This document shows, piece by piece, positions 51,589 through 56,313 of a stretch of DNA of 56,399 bases. Positions within the stretch are counted from its first letter, which is position 1, and each line of letters begins with the position of its first letter. Source of the DNA: a bacterium (lineage in GTDB: Bacteria > Auribacterota > UBA6266); contig JAQUNG010000002.1 in the NCBI GenBank assembly GCA_028717725.1, positions 1 through 56,399 of the forward strand, written 5' to 3'. The notes under the pieces were generated by a model, which made no database searches, was not told the DNA's origin, and worked only from the letters and a program-made list of their open reading frames with translations. The position numbers were made by a program, and so were the translations under genes.

Positions 51589-51665
51589 TGGCGCGCCCGA
51601 GAGGATTCGAACCCCTAACCTTCTGGTCCGTAGCCAGACACTCTATCCAATTGAGCTACGGGCGC
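51589..51665 (-). tRNA. tRNA-Arg (anticodon ACG)
   Basis: Reverse complement GCGCCCGTAGCTCAATTGGATAGAGTGTCTGGCTACGGACCAGAAGGTTAGGGGTTCGAATCCTCTCGGGCGCGCCA folds as a cloverleaf with a CT-ACG-GA anticodon loop. CCA is encoded. Confidence 0.9.
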
Positions 51666-51744
51666 AATCCAAAACATTTGTTGTCAAAGAAACAGCAAGT
51701 TCTATCAAACCCTCAATATTTCACCCTATGTTTACCCGCCAACG

Positions 51745-51943
51745 CTTTGTTTTACAAAGTAAAACAGTGGGGGGCGAAACTTATAATAAAGAACCCTACC
51801 TCCGCGTATTGATTTGCAAAGCAAATCAGCGTGGGGAAACCCGCAAAGCATCAGTTGTTCAGTTCAACAGTTCAGTAGTTCAACGGTTTTTAAAGCTTAA
51901 TATCTTTTACCGTTTAACTGCTAATCTGCTCAACTGCTGAATT
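51745..51943 (+). repeat. Diverged third copy of the about 200-bp hairpin/TATAAT/hairpin/octamer unit
   Basis: Hairpin ctttgt-ttt-acaaag, aaaacagtgggg, TATAAT (51782-51787), hairpin tgatttgc-aaa-gcaaatca (51810-51828), cgtgggga. Then AGTTGTTC AGTTCAAC AGTTCAGT AGTTCAAC ... GTTTAACT GCTAATCT GCTCAACT GCTGAATT. Collinear with the units at 55455-55854. Confidence 0.55.
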
Positions 51944-52060
51944 TAATGCTTTTCGGAACCCAAAAGCGCTTTAGGGTAACATAACCATAATAAAAAAATC
52001 AAGCCAGTATTATTTATACTCTAAATTTAATGTTACAAAGCTTTCCAAGCCGACAGCTCC

Positions 52061-52623: not shown

Positions 52624-53082
52624 ATGACATTAATAAAACCGGATTATATGGCTGAAGCCGTCAAAGAAGCTGTAAAGGCTTTTGATAAGGGAGAGGTGCC
52701 CGTCGGCGCCGTAATAATAAACAAAGACGGGAGCCTGATTGCAAGAGCGCATAACCAGTCTGAGACATTAAAAGACGCGACTGCCCACGCTGAGATGATA
52801 GCAATTACACAGGCCTCAAACGCAACAGGCGACTGGAGGCTGGATGACTGCATTATGTATGTCACCAAAGAACCGTGCACGATGTGCGCAGGTGCCATTT
52901 TTTTATCAAGAATTAAGAAGATTATATACGGATGCCCGGAAAAAAGGTGCGGTGGGCTCATCCAGCTTATTAAAACAGGGAAATTCCCGGAAATCGAAAC
53001 TTCTCTTGAAATAGAATTTCAGGAAAACCGCGTCTGCGCGGAAATACTGGAAGCGTTCTTTGAGAAATTGAGGGGGAAATAG
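52624..53082 (+). CDS. tadA: tRNA-specific adenosine(34) deaminase
   Basis: HAEM (ATAHAEMIAI) and PCTMCAGAI zinc motifs. The ATG at 52624 is preferred over the upstream TTG. Confidence 0.9.
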   Translation: MTLIKPDYMAEAVKEAVKAFDKGEVPVGAVIINKDGSLIARAHNQSETLKDATAHAEMIAITQASNATGDWRLDDCIMYVTKEPCTMCAGAIFLSRIKKIIYGCPEKRCGGLIQLIKTGKFPEIETSLEIEFQENRVCAEILEAFFEKLRGK

Positions 53083-53168
53083 TTATCGAGTTATTGAGCT
53101 ATTTAGTTATTTAGTTCAGGATCTTGATCTTTAACTCAGTAACTTAGTAACCTATTATCTTAATAACT
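53081..53168. repeat. Phased-octamer palindrome (five AGTT octamers / five AACT octamers), copy D
   Basis: AGTTATCG AGTTATTG AGCTATTT AGTTATTT AGTTCAGG -12 nt- AACTCAGT AACTTAGT AACCTATT ATCTTAAT AACT, strictly 8-bp phased. It starts within the tadA stop codon and ends 10 nt before tRNA-Ser. Confidence 0.6.
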
Positions 53169-55262: not shown

Positions 55263-55454
55263 CGCTCCACCTCCTTTGCCCCCAATGTCACCTTTATATA
55301 ACACGCGGAGAAGGAGTTGGAAATTACAAGATCCCGCTATTTTTGTAACGGCAAAACCACTTTCGCCGGGACAATATACGCTTGCATTTTTATCTGTGTC
55401 GTGTTAAGTTAATTTCCCGCCACAAGATACTGACGGGGAAAGTTATTGCGCGAA

Positions 55455-55854
55455 AAGCAAAAGGTTTTTTGATATATCAGGGCTCATCCCCTACTGATTT
55501 GCTTCGCAAATCAAAACACTGAGGATACACCTGAATTGATATATAATTTTATTGGGGCTACCCCCTACTGATTTGCTTCGCAAATCAATACGTTGGGGAT
55601 CCGCTCAACTTAGCAACTTATGTTCATTAACATTCCATAAGTTACAGTTTCATGAAGCAAAAGGTTTTTTGATATATCAGGGCTCATCCTACTGTTGATT
55701 TGTTTTACAAATCAAAACACTGAGGATACACCTGAATTGATATATAATTTTATTGGGGCTATCCCCTACTGATTTGCTTCGCAAATCAATACGTTGGGGA
55801 TCCGCTCAACTTGGCAGCTTATGTTCATTAACATTCCATAAGTTACAGTTTCGC
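55455..55854 (+). repeat. Tandem direct repeat, 2 x about 200 bp, each with two copies of a conserved hairpin, a TATAAT box and AACT octamers
   Basis: Units start at 55455 and 55655 (aagcaaaaggttttttgatatatcagggctcatcc...). They are near identical except for a few substitutions/indels. Hairpins tgatttgc-ttc-gcaaatca occur at about 55492, 55566 and 55766, with a covarying variant ttgatttgt-ttt-acaaatcaa at about 55692. Confidence 0.85.
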
Positions 55855-55882
55855 GGAGGAGTGGCCGATCGCGGCGGTCTTG
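55855..55882 (+). pseudogene. Truncated tRNA-Ser(UGA) 5' half (acceptor to anticodon-loop position), with 8-nt D-arm deletion
   Basis: GGAGGAGTGGCCGATCGCGGCGGTCTTG equals nt 1-36 of the intact tRNA at 56226, minus AGAGTGGC (between GTGGC direct repeats). Confidence 0.75.
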
Positions 55883-55989: not shown

Positions 55990-56262
55990 ATGTATTACGT
56001 ATATGTTCTTTTAAGCTCCAGCAAAAAACTTTGTATCGGAAGCAGCGCTAAGCCAGATGAGCGATTAAAAGCCCATAATGCCGGCAGAGGCGGATGGACA
56101 AAAAGATATCGTCCCTGGAAAAGAATACTCCTCGAAGAGTACGCCTCAAAAATGAAAGCCGCCAAAAGGGAACGATACTTAAAATCAGGCTGGGGCAGGC
56201 GCTGGCTAAAGAAAAATATAAGCACGGAGGAGTGGCAGAGTGGCCGATCGCGGCGGTCTTGA
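55990..56262 (+). CDS. GIY-YIG nuclease superfamily protein (UPF0213/YhbQ-like)
   Basis: YYVYVLL...LCIGSS...RLKAHNAG...RPWK..LEE...A.KRERYLK. The last about 12 codons run into the tRNA-Ser gene. Confidence 0.75.
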   Translation: MYYVYVLLSSSKKLCIGSSAKPDERLKAHNAGRGGWTKRYRPWKRILLEEYASKMKAAKRERYLKSGWGRRWLKKNISTEEWQSGRSRRS

Positions 56263-56313
56263 AAACCGTTGTCCCTCACGGGACCGTGGGTTCGAATCCT
56301 ACCTCCTCCGCCA
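56226..56313 (+). tRNA. tRNA-Ser (anticodon UGA)
   Basis: GGAGGAGTGGCAGAGTGGCCGATCGCGGCGGTCTTGAAAACCGTTGTCCCTCACGGGACCGTGGGTTCGAATCCTACCTCCTCCGCCA with a long variable arm. Confidence 0.9.

Follow-up and report, generated by a model that had tools for sequence, protein, structure and literature searches.

Tandemly duplicated structured repeat modules beside an orphan tRNA-Ser fragment in an uncultured bacterium of the Auribacterota

Organization of the duplicated locus

The window analysed here is the whole 56,399-nt stretch of contig JAQUNG010000002.1 (GenBank assembly GCA_028717725.1). Close to its right end, ARAGORN located an intact tRNA-Ser(UGA) gene at 56226-56313, and a GIY-YIG ORF lies between this gene and an orphan 5′ fragment of the same tRNA (Table 1). 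Upstream of the orphan fragment are two repeated units. Tandem Repeats Finder (TRF) returned a single array at 55455-55852 with a period of 201, 2.0 copies and 94% matches, and global alignment of 55455-55654 with 55655-55854 gave 190 identical columns out of 204; the period of the duplication is 200/201. The two head-to-tail, near-identical 200-bp units of the original prediction were thereby borne out, as was its statement that unit 2 directly adjoins a tRNA-Ser 5′ part, and re-inspection of the sequence recovered every part of the units that it had listed. There are a T6 run at 55465-55470, the hairpin TGATTTGC-TTC-GCAAATCA starting at 55495, 55569 and 55770, its variant TGATTTGT-TTT-ACAAATCA starting at 55696, TATAAT at 55542 and 55743, and an 8-bp hairpin, AACTTATG-13 nt-CATAAGTT, at 55615-55643 of unit 1, whose version in unit 2 (55816-55844) has AGCTTATG as the 5′ arm. 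With up to 3 mismatches allowed, the pattern TGATTTGC-N3-GCAAATCA was found 5 times in the window as compared with 0.49 times expected from shuffles; it is not a chance occurrence. In contigs of the metagenome that is the probable source, and of related samples, the duplicated region was represented by short pieces only, which neither contradicted nor strongly confirmed the two-copy state, this fragmentary support being due to the breaking of unitigs at repeats.

Comparison of all copies revealed that each unit consists of three modules in series, A′, A and B. The unit brings together members of two interspersed repeat families with a wide distribution beyond the source genome, a point overlooked previously. 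Modules A and A′, the latter a variant of the former, are bulged hairpins of ~45 nt. Their G/C-rich outer helix leads, usually through a mismatch and then two pairs, into an A/T-rich inner helix of 8 bp capped by a TTC/TTT loop, and there is a 4-nt bulge (AWRC) on the 3′ side; in module A of unit 1, the outer helix is CCCCC/GGGGG and the bulge is ATAC. The tip of module A is GCGAAGC when read on the strand opposite the tRNA. Successive A copies are 74 nt apart in the units and also in a relative (G002). The TATAAT is replaced in other copies, by TATGTAGT on contig C60 and by GATAGT/TATAGT in G002.

Module B is a three-helix hairpin of ~55 nt made up of P1, a TC/TC internal loop, P2, a 4/2-nt bulge, P3 (AACTTATG/CATAAGTT) and an apical loop of variable length (9-17 nt). 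What had been described as "two AACT octamers" plus an 8-bp hairpin is one such three-helix hairpin. In unit 1, P2 is formed by AACT/AGTT (55607-10/55646-49) and P3 by AACTTATG/CATAAGTT (55615-22/55636-43), with the TC/TC internal loop, and P1 does not form. In unit 2, P1 is CCGC/GCGG (55802-05/55853-56), P2 is at 55808-11/55847-50, P3 is AGCTTATG/CATAAGTT (55816-23/55837-44) and the apical loop has 13 nt; the final GG of this P1 is nt 1-2 of the tRNA fragment.

Two kinds of short repeats were observed near these modules. Octamer palindromes of AGTT/AACT in 8-nt phase, at 53081-53168 and 51860-51945 of the window, use 4-bp AACT/AGTT units, as do helices P2 and P3 of module B, and such phased octamers at tRNA-Ser(CGA) occupy the place of A+B in relatives G003-G005. 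The short repeats ATCTGTG/ATCTGCG are often located 5′ of A-type hairpins (window 55385-55400; relatives L102, L103, L120 and L154-L159).

Comparison with the intact gene revealed that the orphan fragment is nt 1-36 of tRNA-Ser(UGA) minus an 8-nt deletion; the missing 8 nt (AGAGTGGC) lie between GTGGC direct repeats. The fragment would have been the original partner of module B. The GIY-YIG ORF runs into the intact tRNA-Ser(UGA). The arrangement of an orphan tRNA 5′ fragment, an insert of 85-210 nt and then the full gene recurs at C59:2288-2394, C87 (upstream of 2780), C34:8270-8501 and in relatives (L103, L107), the genes concerned being tRNA-Arg(CCG), tRNA-Arg(CCU), tRNA-Val(UAC), tRNA-Arg(ACG) of G003 and tRNA-Ser(GCU) of G001; several of the inserts at Arg loci begin with the hairpin CCGCCACAARGCGTYGGCGG. 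In this lineage, the 5′ part of tRNA genes seems to have been duplicated repeatedly.

Table 1 Coordinates of the duplicated locus and of other features in the window
Feature	Position	Strand	Basis
Two more A copies (51732-51780, stem TGTTTTAC/GTAAAACA; 51794-51842)	51732..51842	-	Covariance model R1, 53.6 and 54.9 bits
Tandem unit 1 (A′, A, B)	55455..55654	+	TRF; alignment to unit 2
Module A′, unit 1; inner hairpin 55495-55513	55481..55529	+	R1, 59.1 bits
A′-A linker, unit 1, with TTGATATATAAT (TATAAT 55542-55547)	55530..55554	+	Part of 74-nt A repeat
Module A, unit 1; inner hairpin 55569-55587	55555..55603	+	R1, 72.4 bits; pair counts
Module B, unit 1	55601..55654	+	nhmmer match; architecture from B-copy alignment
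Tandem unit 2 (A′, A, B), ending at orphan tRNA-Ser 5′ fragment	55655..55854	+	TRF; alignment
Module A′, unit 2; inner hairpin TGATTTGT-TTT-ACAAATCA 55696-55714	55682..55730	+	R1, 60.4 bits
Module A, unit 2; inner hairpin 55770-55788	55756..55804	+	R1, 72.3 bits
Module B, unit 2	55802..55856	+	nhmmer match; B-copy alignment
Orphan tRNA-Ser(UGA) 5′ fragment, 28 nt	55855..55882	+	Comparison with intact tRNA
GIY-YIG ORF, outside repeat	55990..56262	+	Pfam PF01541, E=2.4e-14

Distribution of the modules

A genome-wide count of copies and their positions relative to tRNA genes, which the original prediction had named as a check, yielded further copies, mostly before tRNA-Ser/Arg genes. With covariance model R1, 12 copies of module A were found in the 1.75-Mb source genome (G000), 11 of which precede a tRNA-Ser or tRNA-Arg gene of the same strand. 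Module B has 8 copies, 5 of them likewise upstream of tRNA-Ser/Arg on the same strand. The tRNA-linked B copies end 1-6 nt before the tRNA or the orphan tRNA fragment, and the others are located either before the RBS of a thi4-like gene, 3′ of a TPP riboswitch, or in an insert beside tRNA-Val. The genes carrying modules are 3 of the 4 Ser and 3 of the 4 Arg tRNA genes; by our calculation, an association with tRNA Ser/Arg at 6 of 7 loci would arise by chance with P ~1.5e-18. The two additional A copies in the window lie 66 and 128 nt upstream of tRNA-Arg(ACG) (51589-51665).

The same modules precede tRNA-Ser(CGA, GCU, GGA) and tRNA-Arg(ACG, UCU, CCG) in five relatives of the same family. Within one genome, the modules occur in many copies that are nearly the same at unrelated loci; their number differs between orthologous loci, and they share the orientation of the gene that follows. 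At tRNA-Ser(GGA), the orthologous leader has one A+B in G000 and G001 and at least three modules in G002; at tRNA-Ser(CGA), modules are absent in G000 and present in G003, G004 and G005. In G003, tRNA-Ser(GCU) has a 5′-truncated B, and 3.5 tandem A+B units of 128-137 nt are found with no adjacent tRNA. The first 145 nt of unit 2 (A′+A) match the tRNA-Ser(GCU) leader on contig C5 at 143 of 145 positions and the B modules differ, a near-identity suggestive of recent exchange between the two loci. The module family accounts for the near-identical upstream regions of different tRNA genes, and for the assembly breaks there.

Among the 79 species genomes of the source phylum as grouped here, A is confined to two families and exact B arms to three. 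A subfamily, A2, is present in G004, G005, G018 and G034 and once in G000 (C63:9940-9989), located 0-15 nt past the stop codon of an opposite-strand gene. Its sequence is ATCTGCGTTAATCCCCTGC-TGTTTCGC-TTC-GCAAAACA-AATCGCTGAGGACTATAGTCTGCGTCC (relatives L165-L172 and L153-L164), and in the mRNA sense it would have a GAA loop and G-U wobbles in place of C-A mismatches.

When 185,579 species genomes were scanned with the B arms, more than 120 loci were found, most of them in metagenome-assembled genomes (MAGs) labelled Candidatus Omnitrophota. The consensus of these copies, GGGA-TA-AAT-TC-GGCC-AAAT-AACTTATG-(TC hairpin TC)-CATAAGTT-AT-GGCC-TC-ATT-TA-AGGAG, has the architecture of the window B with other helix sequences. 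In genes of relatives, the B end is directly before a Shine-Dalgarno (SD) GGAG, and the GGAG that opens tRNA-Ser, its first four bases, falls exactly in this SD slot after B. Of 46 copies, 18 are followed by an SD (+10 to +13) and by a start codon (+20 to +28). The genes after B are unrelated to one another (rpsH, ssb, frr, fabF, aroC, glpK and others). Exact-arm copies number 2-24 per genome, and several within one genome have identical apical loops. One of these genomes (G079) has 12 copies of a composite of ~140 nt, an upstream hairpin plus B, that are ~90% identical and have unrelated flanks, one pair being in tandem. The upstream hairpin of these copies (L411-L422) has the order helix, TC-TC loop, helix twice (GTCC-TC-GGCA ... 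TGCC-TC-GGAC), with TC-TC loops that would be tandem G-A mismatches on the complementary strand.

A-type hairpins were present in 8-15 copies in four such MAGs and in none of five other B-rich MAGs; A and B are therefore separable modules. Two RNAs carry module A, in sense orientation, at the apical loop of a helix, namely an FMN riboswitch (RF00050, 83 bits) and a group I intron situated within a tRNA (RF00028, 69 bits), and A is also found in frame in a HEAT-repeat ORF. The 8-kb locus L229 (MAG Omnitrophica WOR_2 GWA2_63_20) is open over its entire length, 2,666 codons with no stop, and has HEAT repeats; it is a giant gene with the hairpin in frame. A search of G089 for further in-frame ORF insertions of A gave only the known one as a clear case.

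The exact inner-hairpin 19-mer, TGATTTGCTTCGCAAATCA, has a still wider distribution, being found at more than 118 loci of many bacterial and archaeal phyla among the 185,579 species genomes, as compared with 7 loci for a composition-matched control hairpin with the same tip, which makes it at least 17 times commoner. Its carriers include Lachnospiraceae, Faecousia, Pseudobdellovibrionaceae, CPR bacteria, Pacearchaeota, Woesearchaeota and others, among them Clostridia and DPANN archaea (L173-L252), and it is usually situated at the tip of longer lineage-specific hairpins or terminators, often in multicopy repeats. A phage origin was considered for the 19-mer and rejected; it is absent from IMG/VR contigs, as is the control hairpin.

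Conservation of structure and interpretation of the units

In 28 distinct copies of module A, 92.1% of the cells are paired. For the inner helix the value is 99.1%, with 3 of the 8 pairs changed on both sides and 0 on one side only, and outer-helix pairs switch between G-C (13) and A-U (10) and between C-G (8) and U-A (7). The covariation score was reached by 0 of 500 shuffles, and slid controls dropped to 31-49% paired. For module B, the apical loop was swapped for a fixed tetraloop to hold the register. In 59 distinct copies, 97.8% of the cells are paired, each of the 9 pairs in P1 and P2 is altered on both sides, in as many as 4 pair types, P3 is almost invariant, and the score was again reached by 0 of 500 shuffles. 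The apical stems of B covary between copies as well (e.g., GCAC/GTGC, GCAT/ATGC and GTCC/GGAC). Counts of G-U versus A-C were 20 and 11 for B and 13 and 17 for A, which do not indicate a constrained strand.

Selection on the structure had been proposed originally from one compensatory difference, a C-G pair of unit 1 reading T-A in unit 2. The proposal holds insofar as covariation over the 28 A and 59 B copies indicates that the hairpins are kept as structures, but the single pair does not serve as evidence. Alignment of the units placed it in a cluster of five differences within ~25 nt, namely two indels (a deletion of 2 nt and an insertion of 3 nt), the two differences in the stem and one in the loop; for that one pair, the double change is thus part of a larger indel-bearing patch, a finding that the prediction itself had listed as one that would count against it. 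The form in unit 2, CCTACTGT-TGATTTGT-TTT-ACAAATCA, is common to the tRNA-Ser(GCU) leader on C5 and to G002 (L116) and is likely to be ancestral. In A′ of unit 1, a 27-nt tract at the 5′ side is identical to the hairpin 74 nt downstream. Since the patch bears indels and has this identity to its neighbour, it looks like a short conversion from the neighbouring copy, the simplest reading, and not like two selected point mutations. On this reading, adjacent copies correct each other, and "compensatory" differences between neighbouring copies can be conversion tracts instead of evidence for selection.

A duplicated small-RNA gene, a tRNA-Ser promoter or leader, and a protein-binding DNA element had been suggested for the unit. 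We regard it as very improbable that the units are independent, duplicated small-RNA genes, each with its own promoter and a U-run terminator. They do contain a TATAAT box, a structured region and a T6 run, and they fold more stably than shuffled controls on both strands (z = -3.4 for the + strand and -5.5 for the - strand). However, a scan of 55455-55854 for sigma-70 promoters and terminators found neither, no terminator-like hairpin was called, no G/C hairpin stands before the T6 run, and A and B do not qualify as intrinsic terminators, having no T run directly 3′. The modules are moreover found separately, A alone and B alone, in many contexts that include mRNA 5′ UTRs, other RNAs and an ORF. 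The prediction had recognised no RNA family in the units, and the covariance search of Rfam that it had named as a check agreed with this, giving no match at E up to 10; nor were there Rfam matches for the canonical B copies or other carriers of the hairpin. Three metatranscriptomes, from which the organism may be absent, had no RNA coverage of the units. No RNA run contained the units, and the sole related transcript signal was one depth-2 RNA-seq contig from activated sludge that spans the upstream hairpin, B, SD and ATG.

If the units acted in control at the DNA level, they would be promoters in tandem (TTGATATATAAT), operators whose palindrome is bound by a dimeric regulator of tRNA-Ser/Arg transcription, or both. 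This is improbable, although it would suit the perfect TATAAT of each unit, the 8-3-8 palindrome formed by the inner hairpin upstream of several tRNA genes, and the tRNA-Arg(UCU) locus, which has no other evident promoter. The promoter scan called no site of the sigma-70 type in the units, the TATAAT is unconserved across copies, and relatives have better promoters upstream of the modules. In addition, symmetric double changes, a variable B loop and a conserved asymmetric bulge suit a folded single strand over a duplex operator, and the same hairpin is found inside an ORF, a riboswitch and an intron. Readings as an extended -10, of TTGATA as a -35 and of TTGGCA...TTCA as a sigma-54 site were inspected by eye and failed on spacing or conservation. 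Antitermination of the rRNA type by boxA/boxB (GCTCAACTTGGCAAC being boxA-like) could not be supported; the MAG has no rRNA operon and a closer boxA-like sequence, GCTCTTTCACAA, is located elsewhere.

At the tRNA-Ser loci of three relatives, 10-of-12 promoter matches were found upstream of the modules (TTGACA-17-TAATAT, TTGTCG-18-TATAAT and TTGACA-17-TAGTAT), so the modules are probably part of the transcribed tRNA leader. As far as sequence can tell, they have the position of a tRNA 5′ leader, between promoter-like sites and the tRNA 5′ end and on the tRNA strand. Of the three suggestions made, "promoter/leader" is the closest, the modules abutting tRNA 5′ ends with promoter-like sites upstream in the three relatives. 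The units are not themselves a clear promoter.

In our view, the 400-bp duplication is probably an amplified array of MITE/REP-like structured repeats in tRNA 5′ leaders. The array would have stood in the 5′ leader of what was originally a tRNA-Ser(UGA) gene, the 200-bp units arising there by local amplification, as one of several such events in arrays of this kind. The modules would be co-transcribed with the pre-tRNA and fold as stable hairpins, and cleavage by RNase P at the tRNA 5′ end would remove them, for which reason they would be tolerated in tRNA leaders. Their spread may have been that of MITE/REP-like elements, or have gone through gene conversion from copy to copy, or both. The 200-bp duplication could have come about through slippage, or through unequal recombination involving the repeated modules, after which the A′ hairpin of unit 1 would have been overwritten from the neighbouring A, and a later insertion of the GIY-YIG cassette into the tRNA would have left the array on an orphan 5′ half. 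Against a reading as leader repeats, the A2 subfamily is opposite in orientation to the neighbouring genes. Most B copies have TA at both ends, but the two TA also pair as part of the stem, and no empty site came to light in clean form; a target-site duplication is therefore not demonstrated. No transposase or IS with matching ends was seen in the loci inspected.

Several features exceed the needs of a purely selfish element and point to function, possibly in processing, stability or initiation. These are the strict orientation, the constant placement at the SD or tRNA +1, the conservation of internal loops and the persistence of modules at orthologous loci of two genera. It is possible, if unlikely, that A and B are primarily functional cis-acting RNA motifs, read by a lineage-specific protein or nuclease to define the 5′ end, stability or translation start of the RNA next to them, mRNA at the SD or tRNA at +1, with spread being secondary. 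The constant orientation of B, which ends 1-13 nt before the SD or tRNA 5′ end, would agree with this, as would the near-invariant P3 arms and TC/TC loop next to covarying P1, P2 and apical stem, the retention of modules in two genera, the frequency of highly expressed housekeeping genes downstream (e.g., rpsH, ssb, frr, fabF and tRNAs), and the RNA-seq contig holding composite, SD and ATG. However, an SD adjoins only ~40% of the canonical B copies, several copies of one genome have the same apical loop, as would follow from recent copying, close relatives differ by loss, truncation or amplification of copies, A is found inside an ORF and the loops of unrelated RNAs, and there is no candidate protein. 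More speculatively, and we hold this to be doubtful, B with its upstream hairpin might represent a new class of cis-acting RNA signal, in which a dedicated factor recognising the conserved three-helix fold would fix the 5′ end, or else the initiation context, of SD-led mRNAs and of tRNA-Ser/Arg, the signal spreading like a mobile element; separately, and equally doubtful, the 19-nt TGATTTGC-TTC-GCAAATCA might be a cross-domain module planted at hairpin tips.

What had been a local oddity has led to two well-defined structured repeat families with strong covariation and no Rfam entry in little-studied uncultured bacteria. The hairpin sequence was not found in the literature searched, and the repeat family appears to be undescribed. 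Its fixed placement at SD and tRNA 5′ ends offers a testable case of either tolerated leader parasites or reusable expression or processing signals.

Comparison with known repeat systems

In being short, non-coding and dispersed in multiple copies (12 A and 8 B in G000; 2-24 B in other MAGs), the modules resemble MITEs. The arms P1-P3 of B correspond to MITE terminal inverted repeats, with a conserved asymmetry in that TC is on both arms. Correia elements (CREE/NEMIS) of Neisseria and ERIC/IRU of enterobacteria are MITEs of ~100-150 bp with hairpin arms in co-transcribed RNA, often 5′ of genes and flanked by TA (Delihas 2011, PMC3184786). Like these, B and the A+B composites are multicopy and intergenic, have long inverted arms and TA flanks, and often lie on the 5′ side of genes. 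They differ from them in having no known cognate transposase and no proven target-site duplication, and B differs further in its conserved asymmetry (TC/TC loop and 4/2 bulge), strict orientation, fixed position at the SD or tRNA +1 and low copy number (~10-25).

Module A is similar to REP/BIME and REPIN sequences in being a covarying imperfect palindrome of 40-50 nt, found singly or in short arrays in transcribed intergenic DNA. REP/REPIN are mobilised by RAYT and, in the part of PMC3733652 available to us, are described with a conserved GTAG/CGTC tag at the 5′ foot. Relative to the tag as given in that part, A has no 5′ GTAG/CGTC, and it also differs in its A/T-rich stem and in having only ~12 copies. 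The 5′ flank of A on the tRNA-sense strand is variable (CTAC/CTGC/CCGC), GTAG being present only 3′ of the hairpin on the other strand. A link to RAYT/REP was rejected, the two PF01797 Y1 genes (on C3 and C32) being flanked by inverted repeats of their own that are unrelated to A or B. These IS200/RAYT-like genes (C3:12333-12668, - strand; C32:16216-16533, + strand) each lie within inverted repeats of 25-30 nt, and a second small GIY-YIG ORF follows the Y1 gene of C32.

Rickettsia palindromic elements (RPE) are palindromic repeats that are tolerated in functional RNAs and in frame in ORFs. They are listed among repeat elements in PMC3184786. The A copies in the FMN riboswitch, group I intron and HEAT-repeat ORF are comparable, but A is far shorter (~45 nt versus 105-146 nt) and only one ORF insertion is verified.

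Integron attC sites were also considered, with CCCCTAC / GTTGGGG as R''/R', and rejected; the resemblance is limited to some copies, and A2 and other subfamilies lack the GTT. The mycobacterial MIRUs are located between cistrons in the orientation of the genes. REP2 of Neisseria carries a promoter, an RBS and an ATG (PMC3184786). Module B resembles both in ending ...TCATTTAAGGAG, directly before start codons, and differs in being a conserved three-helix hairpin that also abuts tRNA genes whose GGAG fills the SD position. In the available part of PMC13037366, GCGNAGC is described as an extraordinarily stable DNA mini-hairpin, the d(GCGAAGC) motif; judged against that part, the likeness concerns the tip of A only, on the strand complementary to the tRNA. 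The architecture of B, and its abutment to tRNA genes and SD sequences, is shared by none of Correia/ERIC, REP/BIME, RPE and REP2/MIRU.
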